Numbered from the stretch's first letter, positions 2,202 through 52,680 are shown. The stretch: 64,000 bases of DNA from Dehalococcoidia bacterium (GCA_040902555.1 JBBDXC010000001.1:150662-214661), one strand, 5' to 3'. A program made the numbers and translations. The notes: generated by a model from the letters alone, not told the origin.

Positions 2202-2540
2202 TTAGTAGGCCATCGGCGTCGAGTTGCGCTCGTGCTCAGCTTCGGCGGCAGCCTCGGCCTTCGCCTGCTGCTTGTTCATGTCCTCGAGGACCTCGTCAAC
2301 CTGTTCGATCGCGTCTTCCTCGAAGCGGTACCAGTCAATGGCCTTGTCGTCGGTAGCGAAGCCCTTCTCGACCGCCACTTCGCGGGAGCCGAGCAGGCCC
2401 ATGTTGGGATCCTCGTGAAGGAACTCCCAGTTGCCCTCGCGGCCTTCGAGCTCATTGCCCTCGGCGACGCGGATCAGGCGGCAGGTTTCCCTGTCGATGT
2501 AGACGCCTGGGCGAGTCGTTGTGCTTTGCATGTGGTCCAC
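2202..2540 (-). CDS. Small acidic hypothetical protein (112 aa).
   Basis: Strong SD (aacGGAGGTGGaccacATG) immediately upstream of the ATG at 2540. Protein-like composition. No family recognised. Confidence 0.55.
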   Translation of the reverse strand: MDHMQSTTTRPGVYIDRETCRLIRVAEGNELEGREGNWEFLHEDPNMGLLGSREVAVEKGFATDDKAIDWYRFEEDAIEQVDEVLEDMNKQQAKAEAAAEAEHERNSTPMAY

Positions 2541-2618
2541 CTCCGTTGGTTCACTGCAAGTGTGCTCCGCGGGTGATAACAGGGCAGGAGAGGACGGGCG
2601 GTGAACGTTGCAGAGCCG

Positions 2619-3932
2619 TTAAGCGACGGCGGGTGCGCCGAGTGAGGACTGAGCCTTGAGGACGTAGGTCGTCATCGTGTCGGTCAGGTCGAGTGCCACG
2701 CCCATGCGGGCTCCCAGCCCTGAGATCAGCCCCATTACGCGGCCAATGAGCAGGAACTCCGTCGGGATGTCGACCAGCGGGTTCTCGCGCAGTACTGCCA
2801 TCATCCTCACGTTCATCTGACGCGTCAGCTCGCGGCGCGGCGTGCTGGTGTCGCTCATACTGCGGGCGAACATATCGCCGACGGCTTCGAGGGCATCGAC
2901 GCTGTCGATTCTGGTGCGGAAGCCCATGCCGCGCAGCGCGCGGCCGATCAGCTTGCGGTCGCGAATGACCATGGCCCAGGTGAGCTCGACGTAGGCGCGA
3001 CGAAATTGCTCGTCGAGGTCCTTGCAGAGTCCGAAGTCGAGAAGGACGATGCGCGGGCCGGGCTGGACCAGGATGTTGCCGGGGTGGGGGTCTGCGTGGA
3101 AGAAGCCATCGACCAGGACCTGCTGCATATAGGCCGTCACGATTTGCCGCATTACCTGCTCGGGCTCAGCGCCGATAGATTCAATGCCGCGCCGGTCCGT
3201 CGCCTTGACGCCCTCGATGTACTCCATGACCAGGAGGCGCCGCGAGCTGTGCTCCCAGACGATGGCCGGCACGACGATCCCGGGGTCGTCGGCGAAGTTT
3301 CGCGCGATGCGCTCGGCGTTGCGGCCCTCGTTGACGAAGTCGAGCTCCTGGGAGGCGGCGAACTGCAACTCGTCGACGAAGGAGCCCAGGTCGAACTCCT
3401 TGAGCCAGAGGCGCTCAGCCGCTTTGGCGATCAGGCGGATGTTCCGCAGGTCGACCTTGACGATCTCCTCGATGTCCGGGTACTGGGCCTTGACCGCCAC
3501 CTGGCGGCCATCGCGGAGGCGCGCCCGGTGCACCTGGGCCAGCGAGGCAGAGGCGATGGGGATCGGGTCGAACTCCGGGAAGACCTCCTCGAGGGGGCGG
3601 CCCAGCTCGGCATCGATGACGGTGCGGATCTCAGCGAAGGGGCGCGGCGGGACGTCGTCGTGCAGCTTGCTGAGGACCTCGACGTATTCGTCGGGGAAGA
3701 GGTCTGCGCGGGCGCCCATGACCTGGCCAGCTTTGATCATCAGGCCTTTGGTACTGGTCGCCAGCTCGAGGAAGCGGCGGGCGCTACCCCTGTGCTGGCC
3801 GGCCAGGCGCCGCTCCTTGACCTCCTCGGGGACGCTGCGGCTGCGCAGGTTGGTCGCGCGATATCCTGCGTAGATTGCGCCGGCTGCGTAGAGGACGCGC
3901 GCCGAGCGCACGGCGCGCTGGACAGGGTTCAA
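2619..3932 (-). CDS. ABC1/UbiB-family atypical protein kinase.
   Basis: ABC1 kinase core motifs: GQVHRA, DFVNEG, HADPHPGNILV, LLDFGL. Proposed TTG start at 3932 overlaps the upstream aminotransferase TGA (TTGA). The longer ORF to 4178 overlaps that gene and is rejected. Confidence 0.75.
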   Translation of the reverse strand: MNPVQRAVRSARVLYAAGAIYAGYRATNLRSRSVPEEVKERRLAGQHRGSARRFLELATSTKGLMIKAGQVMGARADLFPDEYVEVLSKLHDDVPPRPFAEIRTVIDAELGRPLEEVFPEFDPIPIASASLAQVHRARLRDGRQVAVKAQYPDIEEIVKVDLRNIRLIAKAAERLWLKEFDLGSFVDELQFAASQELDFVNEGRNAERIARNFADDPGIVVPAIVWEHSSRRLLVMEYIEGVKATDRRGIESIGAEPEQVMRQIVTAYMQQVLVDGFFHADPHPGNILVQPGPRIVLLDFGLCKDLDEQFRRAYVELTWAMVIRDRKLIGRALRGMGFRTRIDSVDALEAVGDMFARSMSDTSTPRRELTRQMNVRMMAVLRENPLVDIPTEFLLIGRVMGLISGLGARMGVALDLTDTMTTYVLKAQSSLGAPAVA

Positions 3933-5161
3933 GCCGCTGAGGCCTCGTAGGTCTTCTGCAGGGCGACGCCCAGCCGGCGGATAGCCTCGGGGATGTCGTC
4001 GAGGGCGATGTACGAGTAGGCGAGGCGCACGAAGTTGTCGCGGTCCTCGTCGGAGAAGAAGCTGTCGCCGGGGACGACCACTGAGCCTTCGCGATAGGCA
4101 GCGCTGCTCACCTCCTGGGAGGTGTGGCCGGGTTTGAGCTCCAGCCAGATGAAGAACCCGCCTTCGGGCCGCGACCAACTGCAGTAGTCGGCGCAGTGCT
4201 CTTCAAGTCCGGCGAGCATGGCGTCGCGCTTGCTGCGGTAGAGGTCGATCATCTCCTGGCGGTGGCGCTCCATCGTGCCGTCGCGCATCAGCTCGACGAC
4301 CATCCTGGCCAAGAAGGGCGAGGTGCCCATGTCGAAGCGCAGGTTGATGAGGGCCTTTACGACTTCGGGGTCTGCCTGCGAGTAGCCGAGGCGGAGGCCT
4401 GTGGCGATGATCTTCGAGAAGGTGCCGATCCTGATCACGCCCTCGCCGCCGGCGAGCGTGTAGAGCGATGGGAGATCCTCGCCATCGAAGCGCAGGCCAT
4501 CATAGGCGGCGTCCTCGACGATGATGGCGCCGTACTCGCGGGCTATCTCAACCAGCTCGCGCCGGCGGTCGAGCGTCATCGTCACGCCGGCGGGGTTGTG
4601 AAAGTTGGGGATGGTGTAGATCAGCTTGAGCGGGGCGCCACTGGCGCGGACGGCCTCAGCCGTCTCGCGCAGGGCTTCCGTGACCATGCCCTTTTCGTCG
4701 AGGGCGACGCCATGGATGATGGCGCCCGGTCCGCGGAAGGACCTGATCGAGCCGGAGAAGCTGGGGTTCTCGACGATCACAGCGTCGCCGCTATCGAGGA
4801 AGGCGCGGCAGACGTTGTCGAGGGCCTGCGCCGACCCGTTGGTGAGCATGAAGTGTTCGCGGGTCAGCTCGATGCCCTCGGTGCTGCCGATCCAGGCGGC
4901 GAGCTCCTGGCGCAGCGGTGGAGGGCCCTGGGGCCCGCCGTACTGGAGGGCGAGCTTGGCCTCCTCCTCCTGGCTCATGACGGCGCTGGTGGCTTCGGCG
5001 ATGGCGGCGAAGGGCAGGGCGGCAGGGTCGGGGACGCCGCCGGCGAGGATCAACAGCGGGACCGACGGCGGCGCGGCGCTGGCCGGCAGCCAGGACCGCA
5101 CGCCCTGGGCCTGTTTGGAGAGCAAGCGCTCGTGGAAAGGGGGAGATTGGACTTCGGTCAA
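3929..5161 (-). CDS. PLP-dependent aminotransferase, class I/II (fold type I).
   Basis: Length and motifs fit AAT-family aminotransferases (…GTFSKIIATGLRLGY… with the Schiff-base Lys region). First gene of a two-gene operon with the UbiB-like kinase. Confidence 0.8.
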   Translation of the reverse strand: MTEVQSPPFHERLLSKQAQGVRSWLPASAAPPSVPLLILAGGVPDPAALPFAAIAEATSAVMSQEEEAKLALQYGGPQGPPPLRQELAAWIGSTEGIELTREHFMLTNGSAQALDNVCRAFLDSGDAVIVENPSFSGSIRSFRGPGAIIHGVALDEKGMVTEALRETAEAVRASGAPLKLIYTIPNFHNPAGVTMTLDRRRELVEIAREYGAIIVEDAAYDGLRFDGEDLPSLYTLAGGEGVIRIGTFSKIIATGLRLGYSQADPEVVKALINLRFDMGTSPFLARMVVELMRDGTMERHRQEMIDLYRSKRDAMLAGLEEHCADYCSWSRPEGGFFIWLELKPGHTSQEVSSAAYREGSVVVPGDSFFSDEDRDNFVRLAYSYIALDDIPEAIRRLGVALQKTYEASAA

Positions 5162-5362
5162 GGTGGCTTCCCTTCAAGGCTAGTGAGTGCATTCCAATCA
5201 TTACAGACCTTGTTCAGCGGAGGACGTTTACCCCACCCCCGGCCCCTCCCTCTCCATTGGCGAGTCTTCGACCGTAAACAGGGAGGGGAGAAGGGGAGAC
5301 GACCTCACCCCCGCTGTCTCCCCCGCCCAGGCGGGCAGGCAGGCGACTCTTCGAGCGGCTGG

Positions 5363-5385
5363 CCCTCTCCTTGCCAAGGAGAGGG
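5363..5385. repeat. 23-bp palindromic (REP-like) element, copy A: ccctctccttgCcaaggagaggg.
   Basis: Perfect inverted repeat read directly. An identical copy lies at 5509..5531. Confidence 0.8.
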
Positions 5386-5406
5386 GAGAGACGGGGGGCT
5401 GGGGGA

Positions 5407-5487
5407 TTGAACCATTTGAACCTATTGAACCATTTGAACCTATTGAACCATTTGAACCTATTGAACCCTTTGAACCGTTTGAACCGC
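5407..5487. repeat. Tandem array of nine 9-bp units TTGAACCNT (18-bp super-period ttgaaccat/ttgaaccta x3, then ttgaaccct, ttgaaccgt, ttgaaccgc).
   Basis: Counted unit by unit: 5407-5415, 5416-5424, ... 5479-5487. Non-coding; ORF 5187..5645 (EPFEPIEPFEP...) is just its translation. Confidence 0.9.
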
Positions 5488-5508
5488 TGACCCTGGGACC
5501 TCACCCTG

Positions 5509-5531
5509 CCCTCTCCTTGCCAAGGAGAGGG
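5509..5531. repeat. 23-bp palindromic (REP-like) element, copy B, identical to 5363..5385.
   Basis: ccctctccttgccaaggagaggg, preceded by cctcaccctg. Together with copy A it brackets the 9-mer array. Confidence 0.8.
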
Positions 5532-5607
5532 TTTCCCACGCCAGGCGCGCAGGCGGGCGGGAGAGGGGAAAGAAAGGGCACGGGCAGGGATTCCGTCATC
5601 GTTAGTT

Positions 5608-5730
5608 GGCCTTATTTCGCGTTATTTGGCGTTATTTGGGCTTAGTGGGCGCGGGGCCGGGGGCTTAATCGGGCTTATTTGGCGTTAGCGGGGCTTATCG
5701 GGGGCTATTCGGCGTTAGATTGCGTTAGCT
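5608..5730. repeat. Degenerate tandem array built on GCGTTA(TTTGG)/GGCTTAT(TTGG/CGGG) units.
   Basis: gcgttatttgg, cgttatttggg, gcttaatcggg, gcttatttggcgttagcgggg, cttatcggggg, ctattcggcgttagattgcgttagctggg. About 10 imperfect units. Confidence 0.6.
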
Positions 5731-5868
5731 GGGAAAACTTTTTGTTTTTCGGTCGAGGGCTCCTCCTTGTCGCGAAGCCGGGGGTTTTGATCGGGGTTGT
5801 TCGCGAGGTCCGGCTCCGGTTGTTTGATCGATGCTTGGGTCATTTCAGATTCGGCAGGTGGTTGTTGG

Positions 5869-5895
5869 GTTGTTTGAGTTGTTTGAGTTGTTTGA
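5869..5895. repeat. 3 x GTTGTTTGA perfect tandem repeat, plus a degenerate unit upstream (gttgttggg).
   Basis: Units at 5869-5877, 5878-5886 and 5887-5895. Confidence 0.8.
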
Positions 5896-6075
5896 TCTGT
5901 TGCAAGCAGAGAGGTCTCCAGAGGCGACTCTGCGAGGGGAATGGCGGGGAGAGAGGCGGCGGACGCTGTTGGCCTTCGACCAGGGGTGTGGTTCTGCCGC
6001 GGGAGGGATAGCTGGGTTGGGACGAAGCGTCACACGGAGATTGTTAGGGGCCGAGGCGTCAGATCCTGTCGTTGG

Positions 6076-7011
6076 CTACAGAACGTCGCGCACGCGGAGG
6101 TAGATGTCTCCGGTCTGCGCAGCATGGCGGCGCTTTCTCAAGAGGAGATCGTCAAGCTTGATCCTGCCTTCAAGTACAGCGATCAGATCTTCGCCATCCA
6201 TGAGCATCACCAACCGACGACCAGATGAAAAGGCGGTCACGGAATCAGGCGAGAAGCCATTTATTGAAACAAACAGGCCCAGAGTGTTATCAAGGCGGCG
6301 CTCCACCTTGCCCTTAAGCGCATCCAGAGCCTCACGGTCAGTCGGCTCATTCCTCCAGCGAGCTTCGATCAGATAGTCGGTGCCCTCGAAGCCGAACATG
6401 CCGTCAATTTGTTCGCCTGTAACCCTGAATGATTTCTTGGGGTCCAGGTCGAACAGGTCGAAAAGGTCGTGGAGAAGCTTTTCGAGCGCGTAGCCTCGCG
6501 GGACAGGCCTTGTCTTGAAGAGGTCGGAGTAAAGCGTTTTGAGTTGGGTAAGTTGAGATGTGAACTCAGCAATTCGGGTCCGCTGGGCCTCCGCGGACAA
6601 CCGGCGGCGCTCTATCTCGTCAGCTTCGCGGACCAAGTCTTGGTGGCGGGCCGCAAACGGGCGGAGGGCCTCCACGGCTTCACGAGCCGCCTTTTCCCGA
6701 ACCGCACTGTCCTCAAGCCGCGCGAGATGCGGAAAGGATGTGATCTCAGCCACCTGAGCGATGAGCCAAAGGATGTCGTCCTGGTATTTCTGGGGCGCGG
6801 ACGCAAGGAAGTCGACAACAAAGGAAGCTGTGTCCCTTTTTGCTCCTTCCCAGTTCGTCGTAGCGAGTACCGCGTGGCCGGGAAGCGCGTCATGTAGGAA
6901 GATCCTGAGATCCCGCTTGTACCAGAACACAACGGCGAGGGCGTGCTTTAACGCGGTGAGGGCGGCCGCCGAGACCCGGCGTTCATGTAGAGACGCGCTC
7001 ATTGAGCACAT
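6076..7011 (-). CDS. Restriction-endonuclease-like (Mrr-type PD-(D/E)xK) domain protein with uncharacterised N-terminal domain and central coiled coil. Last gene of the type I R-M operon.
   Basis: C-terminal half: ...LEKLLHDLFDLFDL...VTGEQIDGMFGFEGTDYLIEARW..., a D...E-x-(K/R) nuclease core with Mrr_cat-like layout. Central heptad-like Arg/Glu-rich segment (DLVREADEIERRRLSAEAQRTRIAEFTSQLTQLKTL). Co-oriented 33 nt downstream of hsdM. AT-richer than the surroundings. Confidence 0.5.
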   Translation of the reverse strand: MCSMSASLHERRVSAAALTALKHALAVVFWYKRDLRIFLHDALPGHAVLATTNWEGAKRDTASFVVDFLASAPQKYQDDILWLIAQVAEITSFPHLARLEDSAVREKAAREAVEALRPFAARHQDLVREADEIERRRLSAEAQRTRIAEFTSQLTQLKTLYSDLFKTRPVPRGYALEKLLHDLFDLFDLDPKKSFRVTGEQIDGMFGFEGTDYLIEARWRNEPTDREALDALKGKVERRLDNTLGLFVSINGFSPDSVTAFSSGRRLVMLMDGEDLIAVLEGRIKLDDLLLRKRRHAAQTGDIYLRVRDVL

Positions 7012-7044
7012 CTTAGAAGTTTGGCCGGATCTAGGATGTCCGTT

Positions 7045-8556
7045 CTAAAGCAATGCCCTTAGGGACTTGATTGCTTCGTCGACTTCGCGGCCTTTTTGCT
7101 CGATGATGTCCAGCAGCTCTTCGGGGGTGCGTGTGTCCTCGTCGGACTTGCGGTTGGGGTTTACCGCTTTGAGGTCGTAGTTTCGGGCCTCAAGCTCTTC
7201 GCGGGTCACTGTCCAGCTGCGCTCGCTGTCGGCTCGCTCCGGCAAGAGTCGGAAGAAATCCTCAAAGCGTTCGAGCGTCAGCGGCGTTTTCTTGCCGACC
7301 TTGATGTTGGAGAGGTCGTAGTACCAGACCTTCTCGGTTGGGCCGCCGCGGGTGAAGAAGAGGAGATTCGTTTTGACGCCGGCGCCGGCGTTGACGAAGG
7401 CGCCTCCCGGCAGGCTGACGATGCACCAGAGGTCGGTGTCGTTAAGCAGCTTGCGCTTGGTCTGGACGAAGGCGGTCTCGTTGTTGCGGAAGAGGACGCC
7501 CTCATCGACGACGATGCCGGCGCGGCCACCGGGCTTGAGGCTGTCGATGACGTGCTGCAGGAAGAGGACCTGGGTGGAGCCAGTCTTGTAGGGGAAGCGG
7601 GTCTGCGCCTCTTTGCCTTCCTTGCCGCCAAACGGAGGATTCATCAACACCACGTCGTAGAGGTCCGGTGAGCCGTGAAAGAGGCCGCCGTAGGTCTCGG
7701 CGCCGGTCAGGGTGTTGCCGTGCCAGATGTGCGGCTCATCGATGTTATGGAGGACCAGGTTGGCCAGGGCGATGGGATAGATCTGGTTGTCTTTCTCGCG
7801 GCCGAAGAAGGTCTCGTGCTTCAGGACGTCAAGCTGATCGCCCGACTCGATGTTGGCGTTGCCCGGACCGGCCATGTGCTGAAACGACTGGGCCAGGAAA
7901 CCGCCGGTGCCGCAGCCCGGGTCGTAGACCGACTCGCCAATCTTGGGGTCGACGACGCTGACCATGGCGCGGATGATCTCGCGCGGGGTGAAGAACTGGC
8001 CGCCGTCGTTGCCGCGCTCGCCCATTTTGAGCAGAAGTCCTTCGTAGACCTGGGACAGCGGGAAGACGTGGGTCGGGTCGATGGTCTCGTCGGTGATCTG
8101 GTCGACCTTGTCGAGAATGTCGAGGAAGTTGCGCTCGCTGTCGACGCGAGTGCGCTCGACGCCGGACATGATCTGGCTGATGACGCGCTGTCGGGCCGTG
8201 GCGTGTGAGCTGTGGTTGAGGCCGCGCAGGTGAGGCAGCAGGTCGCCGTTGATGAAGGCGAAGAGATCCCCCAACGTCCCGCTCTCGAGCTCTACCCGCT
8301 TTCCGCCATTGGGTGCTCCCCAGTCCTGCCAGCGGTAGGGTGCCTCAAGGGAAGGCGAGAAGGCTGCGGCTACCGCTTCCGCTTCTTCGGCGTCCTTCGT
8401 TTCTCGCTCGTCGAGGATGCGTAGGAAGAGCATCCACGTCAGCTCGGGGACGTACTGGAGGGCCCCGGCGCAGTTAGAGCGGCGCATGATGTCGCAGATG
8501 CCCTTTACGAGGCCATCGACCGACTGACGAGATTGACGGACGCTATTGACCACCAC
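7045..8556 (-). CDS. hsdM: Type I restriction-modification system, N6-adenine DNA methyltransferase subunit HsdM.
   Basis: NPPFG catalytic motif (VVLMNPPFGGKEG), SAM-binding region, HsdM-like N-terminal domain. GTG start at 8556. Confidence 0.9.
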   Translation of the reverse strand: MVVNSVRQSRQSVDGLVKGICDIMRRSNCAGALQYVPELTWMLFLRILDERETKDAEEAEAVAAAFSPSLEAPYRWQDWGAPNGGKRVELESGTLGDLFAFINGDLLPHLRGLNHSSHATARQRVISQIMSGVERTRVDSERNFLDILDKVDQITDETIDPTHVFPLSQVYEGLLLKMGERGNDGGQFFTPREIIRAMVSVVDPKIGESVYDPGCGTGGFLAQSFQHMAGPGNANIESGDQLDVLKHETFFGREKDNQIYPIALANLVLHNIDEPHIWHGNTLTGAETYGGLFHGSPDLYDVVLMNPPFGGKEGKEAQTRFPYKTGSTQVLFLQHVIDSLKPGGRAGIVVDEGVLFRNNETAFVQTKRKLLNDTDLWCIVSLPGGAFVNAGAGVKTNLLFFTRGGPTEKVWYYDLSNIKVGKKTPLTLERFEDFFRLLPERADSERSWTVTREELEARNYDLKAVNPNRKSDEDTRTPEELLDIIEQKGREVDEAIKSLRALL

Positions 8557-9728
8557 TACGCGCGGGCTCCAATCGCCGTCTCGGCCAGGACAGACGCCAA
8601 CTCCCCGGCAGCCCGATCGACCCCTATTGCGGCGTCCCGGATGCGGCCCATTCCGGCCTCAACGAGACGAAATCGGTCAGTAAGCCGAATCTGGTCCGAA
8701 ATCGACGGCAGCGGGACCCGCTCCTCGCGGAGGACAGCGCCGCTAACAATCGGCTGGCCGCCGCCGCGGGCCGCGCTCTCCTGACGCAGCGCAAGGTAGC
8801 GGTAGCGGAACCAAGCTTGCAGAAAATACGAGTCAAATCTGGCCGGCTCGGGGAGAATGCCAAACGCATTTTGACTACAGGTAGAAGGTATGCGAAGGAT
8901 GCCAGTACGCCCTCTGGTTTGGCCTTGGCCCACCATTGCGACAAAAAGTGTGCCGGGGGGAAAGAGCCGCAGATTGTGATCGACCACGGCGGTTTCGCTT
9001 ATGTGCTGGGACGTTTGCCAAACGTCGGCGTCTCTCAATTCAGTCGTGGTAAGCCATGGCACGTCGCCGACGAAGTACTCGGGGTGCACTCGTGACGGAG
9101 TCGAGCCGCTCTTTGTTTCCGCGAAGTCCCCTAGCCGGTGACGCGGCCACCGGGCTGCCTCGCCCTCCTCGAAAACGGCGCGAAGGTAACCGGCTGGAAG
9201 TTGTTTGGCGGCTTCGAGGCGAGCCTGGCTGGCGGCGCGGGCGTTATCTAGCAGGCCCAGTTGCTGCTCCAGCTTCCTAACGATGCGTCTCTGTTCCGGC
9301 AACGAAGGCAATACGAATTCCAACGACTCCAAGTCACTCCTGCCGATGGCTGAAAAGGTGCTCCCACTGCCACGAGCAGCAATATCCTTTTCGCGTGAAC
9401 GCAGCACCCACAGCGCATAGCGTTGATCGAGGCTCGGACCACACCGAATTGCCGCGAGACCCCTGCCAATAGCGGATTCGGTGTCGGCCACGTTGGTCGG
9501 CCCAACCGGCGCACGAACTGAGATTAGAATGTCCCCTGGTTGCGCTATGCAGACCGGATCGGTGCACCATATCCGCGCGATGGGGTGCAGCGAGCCAAAG
9601 TCGGCCTTGCCTTGAAAGAAGGGAAGGCCCTCAGGCTTTGTGCGATAAGTGGAGCCAGGCGGCGACTGGCCCGCGACGATGGTCGCCACGTCCCCCAGCC
9701 GCACATTCGAGGCGCCATACGTCGTCAA
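8556..9728 (-). CDS. hsdS: Type I R-M specificity subunit HsdS.
   Basis: Two target-recognition-domain repeats with conserved central and C-terminal helical spacers (…LPEQRRIV.KLEQQL… / …SISDQIRLTDRF…). TTG start overlaps the hsdR TGA (TTGA). Confidence 0.85.
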   Translation of the reverse strand: MTTYGASNVRLGDVATIVAGQSPPGSTYRTKPEGLPFFQGKADFGSLHPIARIWCTDPVCIAQPGDILISVRAPVGPTNVADTESAIGRGLAAIRCGPSLDQRYALWVLRSREKDIAARGSGSTFSAIGRSDLESLEFVLPSLPEQRRIVRKLEQQLGLLDNARAASQARLEAAKQLPAGYLRAVFEEGEAARWPRHRLGDFAETKSGSTPSRVHPEYFVGDVPWLTTTELRDADVWQTSQHISETAVVDHNLRLFPPGTLFVAMVGQGQTRGRTGILRIPSTCSQNAFGILPEPARFDSYFLQAWFRYRYLALRQESAARGGGQPIVSGAVLREERVPLPSISDQIRLTDRFRLVEAGMGRIRDAAIGVDRAAGELASVLAETAIGARA

Positions 9729-12121
9729 GCGGAGAACATCCGGGACTTGGTCTCGGCCAGAACCTCGACGGGTTTTCCGGCCAGTCGAAGCGCTTTAACG
9801 CCACCGGCTCTGTCTACCGCCGGAACGCTAAATATCTCCGGGTTCTCGATACCCTCAGTGCCGGCGCGCGCAAACTGCTGAGCGATCGCCTTGATCGCGG
9901 CAGCAGCCTGATCAGGCATCCCATCCAGCCAGCGGGAGTGCTTGTAGTCGAAGGCGTCCGTCCGGTGTTTCCTGGTTAGCGGATTTAAGCCGTAGCCGAT
10001 CTCGCCCAGGACGTCGTAAAGGTCGTACTCCTTCATGTTCTCAAGTTCCCTGATAACGGATGCCGAGCGGCCGCCGTCTGGCAGGGCGTTCAGCAGCTCC
10101 CGGCGGTGATCCGGGAGCACCCAGATGTCACGAAAACCGTCCAAGGTGGCTGCTTCCTTCGTCAGGCTTTCGGCCACCATCCCTTTGTACTCCTCGACGG
10201 TAACCGGCGTGGCCTTGCCATCGACACTGGTTAGGATATAGCGGCCGGCGTCGCTGATCCTGACCTCGAAGCCCTCGACCTGTATGGTCCTTTCGCTGTT
10301 GCCTTCATCGGCTTGGTCTTCGGCTGACCCTGAGGGCTCGTCGGTCGTCCGTGTCCCGGGGCTACTGATAAAGTCTTTGCCGAAGAGACGGGTGGCGTTT
10401 GTGTAGTCGTAGACGCGAAACATCAGCTTGGCCGTTTGCGGGTGCAGGCGCGTGCCACGGCCGACCATCTGGTAGAAAGCGATCGGCGACTTCACGTACT
10501 TGAAGAAGACGATGTTGCGGACGATGGGGACGTCGACCCCGGTTGTGAGAAGGTCAACTGTCGTGGCGACGAAGTGACTTCGGGACGAATCTCGTAACTC
10601 CGGCAGGAAGTCATTGCCGAAACTCGCGGCCGTGCATTTGAAGGCATAACTCTCCAGGGGCTTCTTACCCTCGTCCTTACACCACGCTGCATACCAGTTG
10701 TTGAGGCGGATCGCGACCTGTTCGGCGTGGCTGTCGCGAGCGCAGAAGATGATTGTCTTTTGCTCGGGGCCGCCCGTCCGCACCAGGTGACTGAAGAGAT
10801 CGTTGGTCATGCTGTTTACACGCTCAGGAAGCTGGATGCGGTCCTCGAAATCGGGAGCTAGGTACTTCTCACGTACGTCGGATATCGATAGGACTTCCCC
10901 AGTAATCGTGTCAACCAGCTTCTTCCCTTTCAGGTCCGTGTGGGTCAACTCGCTCTCGCGCTCGTTTGCAGGCTGACCGACAAACCAGGGGTCGCGGCGA
11001 ATTATCTCGCAGGCGGCCAGGTAGCCGTCCTCGATGCCCTGGGCGATGTCGTACTCGTAAACGGGCTCCCCGAAGTGGCGGATGTTGTCGGCCTGTATAG
11101 CGAGGTCCACCACCGCGTCCTCGGCGGATTCGGCTACATCGAGGCGGCGTGGGGTGGCCGTGAGGCCAATCTGCACAGCGTCCGGGTTGCGGGTCAGCAA
11201 CTCAGACCACTTGCCCCATGCCGACCGGTGACATTCGTCGATGACGATGTGAGTGAAGTAGTTCTCGGGGTAGTGCGTCCGCAGGAACGAGCTGTCATCC
11301 TCGTCGCTGGCGACTCCCAGGGTCTGGTAGGTAGCGACGTGCACGCGGGCGTTCTTCGCCTTGTTCCGACCGCCGTACTCCTGCTGAACAAGCGCCGCGT
11401 TGCTGCCGAACTCCTGGTTGAGCGCCGCGTGCCCCTGTGTCCGCAGTTCGTCGCGGTCACAAACAAAGAGCGCGCGTCGCATTTGACCAGCGTCGTCGAT
11501 GCGCTTAAGGAGGTTGACCGCGATCTTTGTTTTCCCAGACCCCGTGGCCAGAGAGAGTAGGGCGCGTTTCTCACCCCGCGCCAGCTTTTCGAGGACCGCG
11601 CGGATGGCCGCGTCCTGGTAGTAGCGGATCGAGGCCTGACCGCGAGGATACGGGACCGAGAGGGGCGCTGCGGATGGGTCTGTGAGGCGGAAACCCTTGA
11701 GCTCCTCGTAGCGGTGTTGCAGCTCTTCCGGGGTAGGGAAGGCTGCAATGGGGAGCGGCTCCGAGGTCAAGCTGGTGCCCGCGTCGTACTGCACGAATTG
11801 GTGGCCGTTGCTGGTGAAGGCGAAGGGCAGGTTAAGCCGCTTTGACGCGGCGTAGAGCTTGACCTGCTCGAGGCCGTAAGCGGGCGGGAGATGCTCGGCC
11901 TTGGCCTCGATCAAGGCGACGGCTACCGGGTGACCATCGGGGCGGGCTTTGACGCGCAGGGTGTAGTCGACGCGGCCATGGCTGCGGCGGCGGGCGCGGC
12001 CCTCGGCTATGTAGATGCCGCCGTCCGTCTCCTCGCGGCGGATCATGTCCTCGGTCCAGCCCCGGGCGTAGAGGGCAGGGTCGATGAGCCTGGCTCTGGT
12101 GTCGGCTTCGGAGAGTGTCAT
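9725..12121 (-). CDS. hsdR: Type I R-M restriction subunit HsdR (PD-(D/E)xK nuclease + SF2 helicase).
   Basis: N-terminal HsdR_N nuclease (VDYTL…VALIEAK). Walker A LSLATGSGKT, DECH box (IVIDECHRS), motif VI (QMVGRGTR). Confidence 0.9.
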   Translation of the reverse strand: MTLSEADTRARLIDPALYARGWTEDMIRREETDGGIYIAEGRARRRSHGRVDYTLRVKARPDGHPVAVALIEAKAEHLPPAYGLEQVKLYAASKRLNLPFAFTSNGHQFVQYDAGTSLTSEPLPIAAFPTPEELQHRYEELKGFRLTDPSAAPLSVPYPRGQASIRYYQDAAIRAVLEKLARGEKRALLSLATGSGKTKIAVNLLKRIDDAGQMRRALFVCDRDELRTQGHAALNQEFGSNAALVQQEYGGRNKAKNARVHVATYQTLGVASDEDDSSFLRTHYPENYFTHIVIDECHRSAWGKWSELLTRNPDAVQIGLTATPRRLDVAESAEDAVVDLAIQADNIRHFGEPVYEYDIAQGIEDGYLAACEIIRRDPWFVGQPANERESELTHTDLKGKKLVDTITGEVLSISDVREKYLAPDFEDRIQLPERVNSMTNDLFSHLVRTGGPEQKTIIFCARDSHAEQVAIRLNNWYAAWCKDEGKKPLESYAFKCTAASFGNDFLPELRDSSRSHFVATTVDLLTTGVDVPIVRNIVFFKYVKSPIAFYQMVGRGTRLHPQTAKLMFRVYDYTNATRLFGKDFISSPGTRTTDEPSGSAEDQADEGNSERTIQVEGFEVRISDAGRYILTSVDGKATPVTVEEYKGMVAESLTKEAATLDGFRDIWVLPDHRRELLNALPDGGRSASVIRELENMKEYDLYDVLGEIGYGLNPLTRKHRTDAFDYKHSRWLDGMPDQAAAAIKAIAQQFARAGTEGIENPEIFSVPAVDRAGGVKALRLAGKPVEVLAETKSRMFSA

Positions 12122-12228
12122 GGGTTTGTGTAGTTAGCAAACCACACCTGCGCTCCACGGCGCACGTCCACGACTCTTCCCAGCCGGTTTTTCCGTGGGC
12201 GTTGAATCCTCACTAGAATCAGCTAGCT

Positions 12229-13665
12229 ATGTTTGACACCCTTTCCGACCGCCTGCAGGCGGTATTCGGCCGGCTCGGCCGCAGCTCCAAGATCACCGAG
12301 AAGGACCTCGACGATGCCCTGCGCGAGGTCCGCGTGGCGCTGCTGGAGGCCGACGTCAACTTTAAGGTCGTCCGCGGCTTCATCAACGACGTGCGTGGGA
12401 AGGCGATCGGCGCCGAGGTCACGAAGAGCGTCACGCCGGTCCAGCAGGTGATCGCCATCGTCAACGACGAGCTGGTCGGGATGCTGGGCGGCGAGCAGGC
12501 CACCCTGGCCATGTCGTCGAAGCCCCCTACCGTCCTTGTATTGGTGGGACTCAAAGGGGCTGGCAAGACCACGACAGCGGCAAAGCTGGCGGCGCACCTG
12601 CGCAAGCAGGGAGGCAAACCACTCCTGGCTTCCGTTGACCGCCAACGTGTCGCCGGCGCCGAGCAGCTCGCGTCTCTGTCGCGGCAGTTGGGCGTCGAGT
12701 TCTACTCGCGCGACGCGAAGCCGGACGAGATCGCCCGCGAATCCGTGCTGGAGGCCGCCAAGCGCGGCTCGTCCGTCGTGATCATCGACACGCAGGGCTA
12801 CGTCGAGCTGACCGAAGACGTCGTCAGTGACCTGGGCAAGCTGCGAGACGCCGTCAAGGCCAACGAGATCCTGCTGGTCGCCGACGCCATGACGGGCCAG
12901 GAGGCCGTGAACGTAGCCCAGGAGTTCAACGAAGCCCTGGGCCTGACCGGCCTGATCCTGACGAAGGTCGACAGCGACGCGCGAGGTGGTGCAGCCCTTT
13001 CGATCCGCGCCGTTACCGGCGTGCCAATCAAGTTCGTCGGCACGGGTGAGAAGACAGACGCCCTAGAGCCGTTTTATCCCGACCGCTTCGCCTCGAGGAT
13101 TCTCGGCATGGGTGACGTCGTTTCACTGGTCGAGAAGGCGCAGGAATCGATCGACGAGGACCAGGCGCGGCGGATGGAGGAGAAGCTACGCAAAGGCTCC
13201 TTCGACCTCCAGGACTTCTCCGATCAGCTTCAGCAGGTGCGGAAGATCGGGCCGATGGCCCAGGTCCTTGGCATGCTGCCGGGGTTCGGCCAGATCAAGA
13301 AGCAGCTCAGCGAGTCGCAGCTCGACGAGAGCCAGTTCAAACGGGTGGAGGCGATGATCTCCTCGATGACAGGCCCCGAGCGCCGCCAGCCCGACCTGCT
13401 GGAGCGCAACGGCGGCCGCCGGCGCCGCGTGGCCGACGGCAGCGGGACAAGCCTGGCCGACGTCAACCGGCTGCTCAAGCAGTTCGGCGAGGCCAAGAAG
13501 CTGATGGAAGCGATCAGCAGCGGCCGCATACCCAAGAACATGGCGGCGATGATGCAGGGCATGGAGGGCGGCAACGGCGCTGACGTGCAGGTGGGGGCGG
13601 GAACAAAGGCCAATATGGCCGGGCAGCTATCGCGCCGCCAGCTGCGCAAGCAGCGCCGCCACTAG
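12229..13665 (+). CDS. ffh: Signal recognition particle protein Ffh.
   Basis: N domain, SRP54 G domain (GLKGAGKTTTAAKLA, DTQG, TKVD), Met-rich M domain (MAAMMQGMEG). Confidence 0.9.
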   Translation: MFDTLSDRLQAVFGRLGRSSKITEKDLDDALREVRVALLEADVNFKVVRGFINDVRGKAIGAEVTKSVTPVQQVIAIVNDELVGMLGGEQATLAMSSKPPTVLVLVGLKGAGKTTTAAKLAAHLRKQGGKPLLASVDRQRVAGAEQLASLSRQLGVEFYSRDAKPDEIARESVLEAAKRGSSVVIIDTQGYVELTEDVVSDLGKLRDAVKANEILLVADAMTGQEAVNVAQEFNEALGLTGLILTKVDSDARGGAALSIRAVTGVPIKFVGTGEKTDALEPFYPDRFASRILGMGDVVSLVEKAQESIDEDQARRMEEKLRKGSFDLQDFSDQLQQVRKIGPMAQVLGMLPGFGQIKKQLSESQLDESQFKRVEAMISSMTGPERRQPDLLERNGGRRRRVADGSGTSLADVNRLLKQFGEAKKLMEAISSGRIPKNMAAMMQGMEGGNGADVQVGAGTKANMAGQLSRRQLRKQRRH

Positions 13666-14246
13666 ACGCGCTCTATGCCGTCGATCAGCAGGTCAATGCC
13701 AATAACCACGGCGATGACCGAGAGTACGCGGCCCCCTTCGCGCAGCGGCAGCCGTGTAGTCCCGGTTTCCAACCGGCGAGAGGCGAGCACCGCCGCGGCG
13801 AGGATTGCGAGGGCCCCGGCGAGGGCGCCCAGCGAGCGCAGCGTCCCGCGATCGGCGCCGTAGAAGGCCGAGACGACGATCACGGCCGGCGTAGCCACGG
13901 AGAGGGCCAGCCGGCCCGCTTCTATCGCCCGCTTCCAGCGGCTGGATGGCAGGGGCTCGGGGTTAAAGGGCTCGCGCAGCAGGAGGGTAGGCACAAGCCC
14001 GATGATCAGCAGAAGGCCGGCGCCGCTCTGCCAGCTAGAAACCGAGACGTCGAAGAAGTCGAGTATCTCATCGCCGAGCAGGACGCAGGGGACCAAAAGG
14101 GTGGCCGCGGTGGCAATGGCTGCGAGCGCCCAGCCGCGACGTTGAGGTCTGCCGAAACCGGCGGACAGGGCGTTCCAACGCAGGGCGTTGCCCGACGGGT
14201 TGACGACGACGACGAAGGTCAGGAAGAGGCGCAGGAACTCGATCAG
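13662..14246 (-). CDS. MarC/UPF0056 family integral membrane protein, with a non-canonical start.
   Basis: Read-through of the ORF past its listed TTG start at 14096 gives (L)IEFLRLFLTFVVVVNPSGNALRW..., the MarC N-terminal signature. No ATG/GTG/TTG lies upstream before the in-frame stop at about 14322. CTG at 14246-14244 (or ATC at 14243-14241) overlaps the upstream TGA (CTGA). Confidence 0.5.
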   Translation of the reverse strand: MIEFLRLFLTFVVVVNPSGNALRWNALSAGFGRPQRRGWALAAIATAATLLVPCVLLGDEILDFFDVSVSSWQSGAGLLLIIGLVPTLLLREPFNPEPLPSSRWKRAIEAGRLALSVATPAVIVVSAFYGADRGTLRSLGALAGALAILAAAVLASRRLETGTTRLPLREGGRVLSVIAVVIGIDLLIDGIERV

Positions 14247-15496
14247 CGGTCCGGCTCCCGCCGGCTGCGGTCGTCGAGAGCGTCGCCGGTGTAGATAAGT
14301 CCCGAGATGGCGTGCTGCTGGTCATCCATGCGGGTCAGACCCTCGACAAACCAGGCGCCGTCGATCAATGGGTTGACAGACTCGGCCTGGCGCTTGTGCA
14401 GGATGCCGGCGCCGCAGCGGGCTCGGTCCTCTATGCCCGAGGCCAGGTCGGAGAGCCGTTCGTCATCCTGGGAAAGCCGCCAGAGAGCCGCCATGCCTTC
14501 GACCCACGTGCCGAGAGAGGCCGCCCGGCGGTCGGGGCCGCGCGAGGCGTCGGCGCCGGGGTTGGCGTCTTTCTGGGCCTCGGTGCGGATAAGGAAGCTG
14601 AAGCGGCCGGCGAGGCGGCGCGCGTAGTTGGTGTGGTGGTCTTCGAGGCCCCACTCGGCCATCTCGGCCAGGCCGTAGGCGCCCCAATGGTCGTTGAGCG
14701 GCGGGAACTCGACGTTCTCCAACTCGTCACGGATCAGAGTTATGAAGTCGGCGGCGGCGAAGGCGGCGTCGTCCCAGCCATCGTCGGGAAAGGCCTCGTG
14801 GAGCAGGGCGATGGCCCAGAGCGCCTCGCCCGGGTAGTAGAGCGAGGTTTCGTTGACCTCGGGCTCGTTGCTGTTGAAGTACCACTTGGTGTGGAAGCCG
14901 CCATCCTCGCGCTGGAGTGCAACCATGAAGCGTCCAAGCTGGCGCATCACCTGGTCGTACTGTGTGTCCCCGGTAATCAGCCGCCGTTCGGCCATGGCGA
15001 TGGTCATCAGGGCGGTGGAGCCCAGCTTGCCCTCGCCCACATCGGTCAGCGCTCGCCAGTCGTTATATGATTCCAGTCGCTCCAGCATCCAGGCCAGACC
15101 CAGTTCCGCTGTCGCCATGGCCTCCTCATCGCCGAGGCGGCCGGCGACCTGGTAGAGCGACATCGTGACGCCGGCGTGACGGACGATGTTGTATTCGCTG
15201 GGGAAGGAGTCCTCGTCGCGGTTGTACTCATAGACGTAGGAGCCATCCCCGCGCTGCCCGGCGATCAGCCAGTCGGCCGCCGCCTGGGCCGATGCCCTCG
15301 CCTCGACCGCGCTGAGGTCCGAGCAGGACTCGGCCGGGACAGCAACCAGGCGGACAGCGAAGAGCGCCGCGCCCCAGAAGGCGACAGGCACGAAGAAGCC
15401 GAGTTTGGGCAATTGCCGCCTCTCGCTGACGAGGTTACGCAGTGCCTGGGCGGCACTGCCTTCTGCGTTCAATGTTACTTGCGCGGCCTTGGGCAT
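14243..15496 (-). CDS. Membrane-anchored alpha/alpha-toroid protein (prenyltransferase/squalene-cyclase-like repeats).
   Basis: QxxDG(S/G)(Y/F/W) repeats (GQRGDGSYVY, QREDGGFHTKW). N-terminal TM anchor. Start assigned to the Met at 15496, which has a GAGGT Shine-Dalgarno 6 nt upstream, rather than the Met at 15541. Confidence 0.5.
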   Translation of the reverse strand: MPKAAQVTLNAEGSAAQALRNLVSERRQLPKLGFFVPVAFWGAALFAVRLVAVPAESCSDLSAVEARASAQAAADWLIAGQRGDGSYVYEYNRDEDSFPSEYNIVRHAGVTMSLYQVAGRLGDEEAMATAELGLAWMLERLESYNDWRALTDVGEGKLGSTALMTIAMAERRLITGDTQYDQVMRQLGRFMVALQREDGGFHTKWYFNSNEPEVNETSLYYPGEALWAIALLHEAFPDDGWDDAAFAAADFITLIRDELENVEFPPLNDHWGAYGLAEMAEWGLEDHHTNYARRLAGRFSFLIRTEAQKDANPGADASRGPDRRAASLGTWVEGMAALWRLSQDDERLSDLASGIEDRARCGAGILHKRQAESVNPLIDGAWFVEGLTRMDDQQHAISGLIYTGDALDDRSRREPDR

Positions 15497-15640
15497 GAGG
15501 TAACCTCGCTCTACAGCCCCATCTGGCATGCTTTGACGCAACTAGACACCCCTCCTCCTTCGCCCGGGAGTGAGCCAGGGCCACCTGCCCCAGCCGGCGT
15601 GCTGGGGGCGCCGCGCCGTGGCTGGCGTTCCCTGCGGCGG

Positions 15641-41813: not shown

Positions 41814-43754
41814 TCAGGGGATGCTGGTTACGGTTTCGCAGCCAGCGGCGGCTTCGCCGCCGAGGAAGCTGTCGGGGTTGGCGCCGCCGTGGCACTTATC
41901 GTTGGCGCCGTTCTCGCCGGCAAGCCTGTCCTGCCCGGGGCCGCCGAGGAGGGTGTCATTGGCGTCGCCACCCTTGAGCCTGTCGTTGCCGAGCCTACCC
42001 TCGATTTTGTTGATCGCCGTTGAACCGGTGATCTTGTCGTTGCCGTCGCCGGCGCGGACCCGCTCAACCGAGATGAGGCGGACACCGGCGCCCTCGCCGC
42101 TGGCGGCGCCCGTGGCCAGATTTATGACGCGGCCGAGGTCCCCTGTGAATAGGGCGGTGTCGGTGCCGGCGCCGCCATTGATGGTGTCCTGGCCGGCGCC
42201 GCCGTTGATTGTGTCGTTGCCGGTCCCGGAGCAGATGAGGTCGTTGCCGCCCTTGCCGTTGATCGTGTCGGCACCGCTGAGGCCGAGGATGACATCGACT
42301 CCCGGCGTGCCATTGAGCACGTTGGCGGCGTTGTCGCCGGCGATGGTCTCCGGTTTGCCCTGGCAGAAGCGTGCTTCGAAGGCGCCGATGTCGCAGCTAT
42401 TGCCCTGTGGCCGGGGGATGCCGCGCTGGTCGCGCTTGTTGACCGTGTTCATATCGTCGCACGTTGTGTCATCGCCCTTGTTGAGCGCGGGGCTGCCCGC
42501 CAGCAGGGCATGGGTTAGCGTGGGACCGCCGTTGTCCTGTAAGGGCCCAAGCAGCGGGTCGGTGGAGGGCTGGTCACTGAGCTGATCGAGGTTGCAGGTG
42601 CCATCGCCGTCGATGTTGTTGCCCGCGGAGATGATGTTTCCTTCGCAGTCATCGAAGGTCTTCTGGTCAGTCCCGTCGACGATCGTGTTGCGCAGCGTCA
42701 TGCTGGAATTGCCCGCGAACAATTCTGTTTTGCCATTGAGACGGATGGTGCTGTTGGTGACGGTGGCTGTGCCGCCGCTCAGCCCTATGGCCCCTGCGTT
42801 GCTGCTGCTATTCATGCTGAGCGTGCTGTTAACGACGGTCAGCACTCCGGTATCTGTCTCGACGGCTCCGTTGCTGGCGGACGCAACGTTGTTTGTGAAA
42901 AGGCTCTGGATGATGTCGAACGACGCGCCGTTGTTGAAGATGCCGCCGGCGCTGTGGGCGTTGTTGTCGGCAATGGTGCTGCGGACCAGGTCAACGCTGC
43001 CGAGGGCGCCGTCGTTGTAGATGGCGCCCCCGTCCGCGGCGTCATCGTTTGCTGAAGCCGGCCCGTTGGAGACGATCGCCGAGGCGGTGATCCTCAACGT
43101 GCCCAGGTTGTAGATGCCACCGCCCCTCGGGTCGGAGAAGCTTTCGTCGGTGCCGACGTTGTCTGCGATCAGGCTGTTCATGATTGTCAGGTTGCCGGTG
43201 TTGTTGTTGTGAATGCCGGCACCGTCGTTAGCGGTCGCGTTATCCCTTACGGCGACGTTGTCGAGGGTCAGGAAGCCGGAGTTCCGCAGCCCGCCGCCGA
43301 GGTCGACGTCGTAGCCATTCTGAATGGTGAGGTTGGACATGGTGACTACCGAGGTGCCGATGGCAAAGAGACGGCTGGCATCGCCGCCGTCGATCAGCGT
43401 GATGTCCCGTCCGGCGCCGACGATGTTCAGGCTGCTGTCGGGAATCGTAATCTGGCCGTTATCCACAGTAAACGTGTCGGGGCCGGGCGCGCCGAGGTCG
43501 GGGATGACGATGTCGTCCGGGCTGCCGCTGACGTTGAGGGCAGTGGCGATCGCCCCGCGTAGCGAACAGTCGTTGGCCACGTTGTCGAAACAGTCATCCG
43601 GCACCGGTGCGATGGGGTCGTCGGTCCGATCGACCGTGTAGACGGCGGCGAGAACCCTCTCAGGCTGCGACAGCTGAAGCCCGAGGAGGAGCGCCAAAGC
43701 GACAACGCCAAGAAGTGACAGGCCCAGCCTCGAGAGTCGCAGCGGACGGTTCAT
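41814..43754 (-). CDS. Secreted right-handed beta-helix (Pmp/GGAI-repeat) protein with CSLREA-like N-terminal cap and RTX-type calcium-binding C-terminal module. Paralog 1 of 3.
   Basis: Signal peptide. CSLRGAIATALN cap. GGGIYN/GGAIYN Pmp-like repeats. C-terminal GGxGxD nonapeptides ending …CETVTSIP. Confidence 0.7.
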   Translation of the reverse strand: MNRPLRLSRLGLSLLGVVALALLLGLQLSQPERVLAAVYTVDRTDDPIAPVPDDCFDNVANDCSLRGAIATALNVSGSPDDIVIPDLGAPGPDTFTVDNGQITIPDSSLNIVGAGRDITLIDGGDASRLFAIGTSVVTMSNLTIQNGYDVDLGGGLRNSGFLTLDNVAVRDNATANDGAGIHNNNTGNLTIMNSLIADNVGTDESFSDPRGGGIYNLGTLRITASAIVSNGPASANDDAADGGAIYNDGALGSVDLVRSTIADNNAHSAGGIFNNGASFDIIQSLFTNNVASASNGAVETDTGVLTVVNSTLSMNSSSNAGAIGLSGGTATVTNSTIRLNGKTELFAGNSSMTLRNTIVDGTDQKTFDDCEGNIISAGNNIDGDGTCNLDQLSDQPSTDPLLGPLQDNGGPTLTHALLAGSPALNKGDDTTCDDMNTVNKRDQRGIPRPQGNSCDIGAFEARFCQGKPETIAGDNAANVLNGTPGVDVILGLSGADTINGKGGNDLICSGTGNDTINGGAGQDTINGGAGTDTALFTGDLGRVINLATGAASGEGAGVRLISVERVRAGDGNDKITGSTAINKIEGRLGNDRLKGGDANDTLLGGPGQDRLAGENGANDKCHGGANPDSFLGGEAAAGCETVTSIP

Positions 43755-43756
43755 CG

Positions 43757-47152: not shown

Positions 47153-47179
47153 GGATGCGCAGCGACTAACCGGCGTCCG

Positions 47180-52125: not shown

Positions 52126-52680
52126 ATGGTCACGACGAGAAAGATGACGCTTGAGGAGTATCTGGAGCTGCCGCAGGCGAAGCCCTACCTGGAGTTCGTC
52201 GACGGGGAGGTTGTGGAGAAGATGTCACCTCAGGCGCAGCACTCACGCATTCAAGGGGCTCTTCTTGCGATGTTTGGGTCGTTGAAACCGTATGGATATG
52301 AGGCGCTTTCAGAATTGCATTCGCTTTTCGGCCGACCGGCCCGCGGCTATATCCCCGATGTCGTAATCGTGGCTACCTCGCGCCTGCAGCGGGACGAACG
52401 GGGCCGCGTTTTCGGCCCAATCAACTTTGCACCAGAGATCGCCATCGAGATATTGTCCCCGGACGACAGAGCGGGGCGTGTGCTTGAGAAGCTCACGTTT
52501 TACATGGATAACGGAGTGCAGTTAGCCCTGGTTATTGACCCCGATATAGAACGTGTCAGCGTGTACAGGCCCGGCCAGGCGCCGCTCCTTTTTCCGCGGT
52601 CGGCGACGATAGACCTTTCACCGGTTATCCCTGACTTCTCAATGGAGTTGGAGAAGGTCTTCGGGGCGCTGGAGGAGTAG
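52126..52680 (+). CDS. Uma2-family (DUF820) PD-(D/E)xK endonuclease-like protein.
   Basis: …YLEFVDGEVVEKMSP…PDVVIV…PEIAIEILSP… Uma2 signature. Confidence 0.8.
   Translation: MVTTRKMTLEEYLELPQAKPYLEFVDGEVVEKMSPQAQHSRIQGALLAMFGSLKPYGYEALSELHSLFGRPARGYIPDVVIVATSRLQRDERGRVFGPINFAPEIAIEILSPDDRAGRVLEKLTFYMDNGVQLALVIDPDIERVSVYRPGQAPLLFPRSATIDLSPVIPDFSMELEKVFGALEE

Follow-up and report, generated by a model that had tools for sequence, protein, structure and literature searches.

The 64,000-nucleotide stretch of Dehalococcoidia bacterium DNA analysed here (GCA_040902555.1, JBBDXC010000001.1:150662-214661; hereafter the window) carries, in a low-GC segment at 5161–12228, the genes hsdR, hsdS and hsdM of a type I restriction-modification (R-M) system followed by a fourth gene, here called gene 4, which encodes a 311 aa protein. 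We consider it probable that this segment is an acquired insertion holding two separate defence modules, namely the type I cassette and an independent single-gene nuclease, gene 4, that would be activated by assembly. Three lines of evidence are set out below: the comparison of the segment with the nearest relative, the composition and relatives of the R-M cassette, and the architecture, distribution and neighbourhoods of the gene 4 family.

The 5161–12228 segment is an indel of low GC content

The segment spans 7,068 bp, as delimited by blastn. It is lacking in the nearest relative, L095, the contig with the most similar Ffh (79% identical) among those long enough for comparison. The gene order of L095 is ABC1 kinase, aminotransferase, 97 bp and ffh, while in the window the same gene pair stands 7,068 bp apart. 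By blastn, L095 202–3130 corresponds to window positions 2230–5160 and L095 3228–4553 to positions 12229–13554; since both blocks abut the ends of the segment, the intervening 7,068 bp constitute an indel. With a GC content of 0.610 the segment is the minimum among all 7-kb windows of the 64 kb, when compared to a mean of 0.658 +/- 0.007 and a minimum of 0.646 in the 7-kb windows that do not overlap with it. The first-pass annotation had described the four-gene block as AT-richer than its flanks and as a horizontally acquired island, and both descriptions are supported. The GC content at third codon positions (GC3) is nevertheless uneven across the block: it is low for gene 4 (0.67, z-score -3.7 against 30 background genes) and for hsdS (0.67, -3.8), reaches 0.78 for hsdR (-1.4) and is host-like for hsdM (0.84, 0.0).

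The relatives of the encoded proteins contrast with those of the flanking gene. BLASTP matches of HsdM at 76–81% identity come, where the source is named, from Binatia, Acidobacteriota, Nitrospirota, Rokubacteria, Methylomirabilia and Chloroflexota, among others, whereas for Ffh (12229–13665) the nearest few relatives stand at 72–79% and the following ones at about 60%, the named ones being mostly still Dehalococcoidia/Chloroflexi. Because of the low GC content, the contrast between HsdM and Ffh identities and the synteny, a horizontally acquired insertion between the aminotransferase gene and ffh is much more likely than a deletion in L095. The host-like GC3 of hsdM beside the value of 0.67 for hsdS and gene 4, together with the cross-phylum identity of HsdM, raise the possibility that the island may have been assembled from components of different age or origin. 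No tRNA or integrase was detected inside the segment, and no direct repeats at its ends. Exact-protein look-ups of Ffh and gene 4, made in search of island-free strain variants of this metagenome-assembled genome (MAG), returned the same sample only.

A complete type I cassette with gene 4 as its cargo

All four genes lie on the minus strand: hsdR (9725–12121, 798 aa), an EcoAI/EcoEI-like type I restriction subunit; hsdS (8556–9728, 390 aa), a specificity subunit; hsdM (7045–8556, 503 aa), an N6-adenine methyltransferase subunit; and gene 4 (6076–7011). The TTG start of hsdS overlaps the TGA stop of hsdR by 4 nt (gcTTGAcg), the TAG stop of hsdS and the GTG start of hsdM overlap by 1 nt (gcgTAGTGgtg), and gene 4 begins with an ATG 33 nt after the hsdM stop; orientation, coordinates, overlaps and gap are exactly those given in the first-pass annotation. 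Since hsdM and gene 4 are co-oriented and the 33-nt gap between them contains no terminator-like site, gene 4 is probably co-transcribed with the R-M cassette.

Each of the three Hsd proteins belongs to the family expected for a complete type I system. HsdR matches ResIII (3.7e-35), SWI2_SNF2, Helicase_C and an EcoEI_R_C tail in Pfam, and REase_I in PADLOC (1.7e-89). Its translation displays a nuclease D...EAK motif ('VDYTL...ALIEAKA'), a Walker A motif ('ATGSGKT') and a DEAD-box ('DECH'), so that an N-terminal PD-(D/E)xK nuclease is joined to a superfamily 2 (SF2, DEAD-box) translocase as in type I restriction subunits. The best NCBIfam match is EcoAI/FtnUII (NF046051, 437.8 bits over residues 3–776), which does not reach the equivalog cut-off of 550; because of this lower score we use the term EcoAI/EcoEI-like. 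HsdM matches N6_Mtase (1.9e-57), HsdM_N (7.2e-8) and PADLOC MTase_I (1.8e-183) and carries the motifs 'DPGCGTGGF' and 'NPPF', the signature of a gamma-class N6-adenine methyltransferase with an HsdM_N domain. HsdS matches Methylase_S in two stretches (9e-22) and PADLOC Specificity_I over residues 11–354 (3.7e-46), in keeping with two target-recognition domains. Judged from these translations, the cassette is a complete, intact-looking EcoAI/EcoEI-like type I R-M system of the ordinary kind. In type I enzymes an M2S complex methylates a bipartite target, while the R2M2S complex translocates on unmodified DNA and then cuts; from this family knowledge, the cassette should act as a canonical type I enzyme. 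It resembles type IB-like (EcoAI/EcoEI) systems in having all three subunits with the expected domains and motifs, including the EcoEI_R_C tail. It differs from them in the sub-equivalog HsdR score, in the gene order hsdR-hsdS-hsdM, which its close relatives share, and in the fourth, unrelated gene appended here. An assignment of hsdM and hsdS to MADS was rejected, the NCBIfam MAD2 score being 93.7 bits against a cut-off of 720 and no other mad genes being found in the block.

Close relatives of the cassette, in which HsdM is 77–79% identical, were found at L096, L097 and L100/L101. They keep the hsdR-hsdS-hsdM order and lie between housekeeping genes, and all three are devoid of gene 4. Their cargo differs (L097 6157–7004; L100/L101 5031–5708): in one relative a 139-aa gene and a PIN-domain gene are inserted between hsdS and hsdM, and in another a DUF3800 gene stands between hsdR and hsdS. 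Because the relatives preserve the order of the three genes while carrying different extra genes, hsdR-hsdS-hsdM is regarded as a mobile unit that gathers variable cargo, gene 4 being the cargo of this copy.

Gene 4 combines a nuclease domain with a putative Death-like domain

Three regions can be recognised in the gene 4 protein: an all-helical Death-like (EAD8-like) domain (residues 10–120; 6652–6984, minus strand), a coiled-coil linker consisting of one long helix (residues 124–166; 6514–6642, minus strand; assigned by DSSP on the AlphaFold2 model) and an Mrr_cat PD-(D/E)xK nuclease domain (residues 174–279; 6175–6492, minus strand; assigned by Pfam). The AlphaFold2 model, built with 32 sequences, has a predicted local distance difference test score (pLDDT) of 87 and consists of a helical N-terminal domain (NTD), the helix 124–166 and an alpha/beta C-terminal domain. 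The only Pfam match of the protein is Mrr_cat (E=5e-6, 27 bits against a cut-off of 21), which agrees with the first-pass annotation in that gene 4 is not a standard type I component. The same annotation had recognised a fusion of an Mrr-like domain with a coiled coil, and this part stands; its N-terminal domain of unknown kind, on the other hand, can now be described as a Death-like fold related to EAD8, as detailed below.

The best solved structures matched by the C-terminal domain in Foldseek are MspJI, FokI and EndoMS/NucS. The PD-(D/E)xK residues proposed in the first-pass annotation proved to be conserved in an alignment of 83 sequences, E177 in 82 and D203 and E216 in all 83. Position 218 is a lysine in 77 sequences and an arginine in six, and the window copy is one of these six. 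Because arginine replaces the lysine, the nuclease encoded in the window may be weakened or inactive; the open reading frame (ORF) is intact and full length, and every other invariant position checked is retained.

The Pfam EAD8 family is matched at E<=0.1 by 24 of 32 aligned relatives, a few of which match EAD1 too, with a best score of 26.3 bits (1.2e-5) against a gathering cut-off of 27. Structural matches of the NTD include CARD and pyrin domains and the death domains of FADD and TRADD; a few unrelated helical bundles match within the same score range as these death folds. The NTD resembles effector-associated domains (EADs) in being a small non-enzymatic all-alpha domain of Death-like character. 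We assign it with moderate confidence to a six-helix Death-like fold related to EAD8, because the sequence matches are sub-threshold and the fold is small. A Foldseek search of the NTD against BFVD returned nothing below E=1.8.

The profile of this domain was compared with 1.84 billion cluster representatives, among which 590 proteins matched. The best 150 of these (E < 1e-21) are all of 386 aa or less; 48 have a complete C-terminal nuclease domain and many others a partial one, while the remainder are mostly short and fragment-like. One protein carries HNH instead of Mrr. Since the best 150 matches never exceed this length, the NTD, as far as strong matches go, belongs to one short, constant architecture that large NTPases do not share. 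The NTD profile hidden Markov model (HMM) detected no second copy, in any frame, in the 64-kb window or within 10 kb on either side of 82 loci homologous to gene 4.

A widespread family without a model in PADLOC v2 or NCBIfam

At least 839 homologues of the gene 4 protein were found, of about 305 aa; nearly all are 303–317 aa long and they are about 50% identical over their full length. When one genome per GTDB species was scanned with a degenerate pattern, relatives turned up in 433 species from many bacterial phyla, with two DPANN-archaeal matches (Pacearchaeota). Mean pairwise identity is highest in the nuclease (0.68), followed by the NTD (0.50), and lowest in the coiled coil (0.33). The window copy is the most divergent member sampled, its NTD identity being 39% when compared to the family mean of 50%. 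Public databases label the family as 'restriction endonuclease', the NCBI name, or as 'hypothetical'. NCBIfam and PADLOC v2 contain no model for it, no solved structure of the family was identified by sequence, and a literature search found no publication on it. PDC-S02, which PADLOC lists as a candidate single-gene system, gave a weak and partial match (E=4.3e-5, residues 204–279 against model positions 243–317 of 346) and was rejected: the likeness covers about 75 residues of the nuclease core while the N-terminal two thirds of the gene 4 protein are unmatched, which indicates a different family. Likewise, a weak and partial match to PADLOC Cas11a was dismissed.

Two variants depart from the common architecture. 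In candidate division KSB1, a TIR domain is added N-terminally to the full Death-like/coiled-coil/Mrr protein (P0097; L014 9581–10942 and L085 10001–11362), while in P0207 (245 aa) the Death-like domain is followed by an HNH nuclease in place of Mrr. A homologue in a Thermoanaerobaculia MAG (L038 9905–10906) is broken by an in-frame stop into two ORFs and is either a pseudogene or a sequencing error. Neither homologues nor decoys encoded by phages were detected by tblastn against 50,697 phage records. Plasmid records matching gene 4 by tblastn number 1,393, of which 1,136 are from Klebsiella, mostly through the C-terminal nuclease domain only; in the Klebsiella record inspected (L103, NZ_KP893385.1, 3911–4453) the match lies inside a 180-aa 'restriction endonuclease' adjoining insertion sequence (IS) elements. 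The only full-length plasmid relatives are those of two Delftia plasmids (for example L102, NZ_CP065697.1, 6950–7867), which are 32% identical. Gene 4 presents itself as a member of a stand-alone family and not as an R-M subunit.

Neighbourhoods of gene 4 homologues

The 82 homologous loci were examined over +/-10 kb, and R-M-type genes were called by iterated profile searches covering type I/III methyltransferases, HsdS and SF2 restriction subunits. Such genes lie within 10 kb in 20 of the loci. Several homologues follow co-oriented restriction genes at short distance: 30 nt behind a HindI-type type I hsdR (L071/L072), 6–10 nt behind a type III Mod+Res pair (L033/L034/L040) and 47 nt behind a Type ISP enzyme (L043). 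That these systems are of unrelated types speaks against a specific subunit tie to any of them. GmrSD or Schlafen-AlbA_2 genes lie downstream of some homologues, and other neighbours include DUF6119, SF1-helicase/MTES_1575 nuclease, CcdAB and Phd toxin-antitoxin genes and transposases. On the Delftia plasmids, an AbiEii toxin gene and the distant full-length relative overlap, and QatABCD follows downstream. The pattern of the family is that of a gene apparently travelling through defence islands.

A conserved partner gene was sought by all-against-all clustering of the neighbouring ORFs of the 82 loci and was rejected: the commonest family, of about 330 aa and at a median distance of 5 kb, occurs in 12 loci and no other family in more. 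The immediate upstream and downstream ORFs have no similarity across loci (phmmer E<=1e-3), and the Pfam families found in them vary. Nor did these loci show a conserved neighbour of the ATPase or protease kind. This distinguishes the family from the bacterial CARD-like systems (type II gasdermin and related operons; PMC10312443; PDB 8ss1), which are multi-gene and place an NLR-like ATPase and one or more CARD-proteases beside the effector; gene 4 is single, its Death-like domain being fused straight to the nuclease via the coiled coil.

Island margins and other features of the window

The island is flanked by housekeeping genes for an ABC1 kinase, an aminotransferase and Ffh, and also by a gene for an MFS transporter. 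Both boundaries reported in the first-pass annotation were recovered, a divergent ffh on one side and a repeat-rich non-coding tract on the other. The start of ffh lies 107 bp from hsdR, and the intergenic region between the two genes (12122–12228, 107 bp) contains one terminator-like hairpin on the minus strand (12149–12164). A sigma-70 consensus scan of 5000–12400 returned no site, a result that says little for a Chloroflexota genome.

Downstream of gene 4, the island ends in a 914-bp tract (5162–6075) with a GC content of 0.588 and no credible gene. The perfect 23-nt palindrome CCCTCTCCTTGCCAAGGAGAGGG occurs at 5363 and 5509 and nowhere else in the window, and its two copies bracket about nine 9-nt units TTGAACCNT (5406–5485). 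About fourteen 10-nt units resembling GGCGTTATTT follow at 5588–5735, and GTTGTTTGA is present four times at 5861–5900. The spacing of these repeats is iteron-like. No Rfam family was matched anywhere in the window, including this tract, and the 9-nt array TTGAACCNT had no match in viral contigs.

Elsewhere, the only other strongly low-GC gene of the window (52126–52680, plus strand; GC 0.576, GC3 0.70) encodes a 184-aa putative restriction endonuclease of the Uma2 family (Pfam 4.2e-26). The proteins encoded by three consecutive large genes at 41814–50878 (minus strand; 646, 1131 and 1232 aa) all carry RTX calcium-binding repeats, to which thrombospondin type 3 repeats are added in the two largest and DUF11 in one of these two. 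The three proteins look secreted or surface-located. Finally, a putative 432-aa ORF at 14243–15541 (minus strand) has no Pfam match and overlaps antisense ORFs, and in the relative L083 a 417-aa gene is called at the equivalent position.

Alternative explanations

Gene 4 could be an EAD-coupled effector whose EAD8-like domain docks in trans on an EAD8 core (STAND NTPase-FGS, iSTAND2 or VMAP) encoded elsewhere, the core sensing the invader and activating the nuclease. In the systems of Kaur et al., one EAD copy resides on the core (VMAP, iSTAND, STAND-FGS or GAP1) and a second on the effector, as a rule the product of the neighbouring gene but at times of one located elsewhere in the genome; EAD8 is counted there with the EADs that recruit effectors (PMC7159879, PMC8195603). 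Several points agree with such effectors (Kaur, Burroughs, Iyer, Aravind 2020/2021; EAD8 PF19961): an enzymatic effector carries a small, all-helical domain of the adaptor type and of Death-like character, three quarters of the aligned relatives match EAD8, Mrr-like restriction endonucleases are named among the effectors of those systems, and Mrr-like, TIR and HNH versions all exist in the gene 4 family. We nevertheless regard this explanation as unlikely. No cognate EAD on a neighbouring core was found in the 82 loci or the window, so that the pairing is not seen locally, and none of the best 150 NTD matches is NTPase-sized. The architecture is fixed at about 305 aa and not promiscuous, the EAD8 matches are sub-threshold, and the NTD keeps 50% mean identity across phyla whereas EAD pairs are described as lineage-specific. 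Members of the family also occur in Pacearchaeota and Paceibacterota MAGs (L006, L082), groups whose very small genomes are unlikely to hold large ternary systems. The first-pass annotation had suggested a type IV, modification-dependent activity; as a restriction enzyme of the Mrr/MspJI kind, gene 4 would attack modified phage DNA and in this way supplement the type I system, which we judge improbable. The Mrr_cat domain, MspJI as the nearest solved fold, the recurrence beside R-M systems and the NCBI label would fit, but beyond the shared catalytic fold nothing points to such an activity: neither an Mrr_N winged helix, nor an SRA domain or any other known modified-base reader was found with Pfam and NCBIfam. 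The N-terminal half is instead a Death-like bundle and a coiled coil, the former being a protein-protein interaction fold in its CARD, pyrin (PYD) and death domain (DD) matches, and the TIR-fusion and HNH-swap variants resemble conflict-system effectors, not site readers.

Decay or loss of catalysis in the window copy, leaving it with no current function, would account for R218, where most relatives have the catalytic lysine, and for its being the most divergent copy sampled, and L038 offers an apparent example of a pseudogene among the relatives. This is decidedly improbable, since the ORF is intact and full length, E177, D203, E216 and the other checked invariant positions are kept, the AlphaFold2 model is confident, and the five other sequences with R218 mark it as a recurrent variant. 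Least probable by far is an accessory subunit or regulator of the adjacent type I system, providing an extra nuclease or anti-restriction control, which the first-pass annotation had also entertained. The likely co-transcription with hsdM and the homologues located 6–47 nt behind restriction genes elsewhere speak for it. The systems upstream of those homologues, however, are unrelated (another type I family, type III, type ISP) and offer no common partner, 62 of the 82 loci yielded no R-M-type gene within 10 kb, neighbouring genes are not conserved, the three close relatives of the cassette do without gene 4, and GC3 differs sharply between gene 4 and hsdM (0.67 vs 0.84).

Several observations also weigh against the reading of an acquired insertion with two defence modules. 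Formally, the L095 lineage could have lost the segment. The 62 loci in which no R-M-type gene was detected, some of them purely housekeeping (L087), bear on the link to defence as well, and the apparent enrichment in defence islands was judged against an assumed base rate. Moreover, gene 4 of the window has no EAD8 match at E<=0.1, even the best relative remaining just under the Pfam cut-off, and it carries R218 instead of the canonical catalytic lysine.

A proposed mechanism and its significance

For the favoured reading, in which the type I cassette and gene 4 are independent, we propose that the gene 4 nuclease is held latent and that homotypic assembly through the Death-like domain and the coiled coil would switch it on during infection or stress. 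The protein might oligomerise by itself or be recruited to another Death-like/EAD8 protein. Once active, the nuclease would degrade DNA, as a second-line defence of the abortive-infection type. The position of gene 4 behind hsdM would reflect a habit of landing in defence islands, in many cases just behind the last gene of a restriction operon. Assembly-dependent activation is suggested by analogy with death-fold assemblies, EADs and CARD-like gasdermin-type systems: EADs and Death-like domains have been proposed as homotypic adaptors for effectors (PMC7159879, PMC8195603), and bacterial gasdermin-type defence requires CARD-like domains (PMC10312443).

A bolder version, which we put forward only tentatively, is that these proteins of about 305 aa are a self-contained single-gene immune module, in which infection-triggered self-assembly of the death fold activates the fused nuclease and no NTPase sensor takes part. 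The occurrence of the family in the Pacearchaeota and Paceibacterota MAGs and the fair conservation of the NTD across phyla favour self-containment. On this tentative account, the family might stand as the minimal equivalent, in bacteria and archaea, of death-fold signalling, with TIR and HNH variants and a tendency to ride along behind restriction operons, at their 3' ends.

The cassette itself is a clean case of a highly mobile hsdR-hsdS-hsdM unit between housekeeping genes in uncultured Dehalococcoidia, its R-M part being routine. Gene 4, in turn, belongs to a family present in hundreds of species yet absent from PADLOC v2 and NCBIfam, and the Death-like/coiled-coil/Mrr family is a reasonable candidate for a compact defence gene. 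If Death-like control without a linked NTPase is true, it would be a very compact addition to the catalogue of phage defences, prokaryotic death-fold signalling would reach beyond the multi-gene systems so far described, and a small, tractable protein would be at hand for the study of enzyme activation by death-fold assembly.

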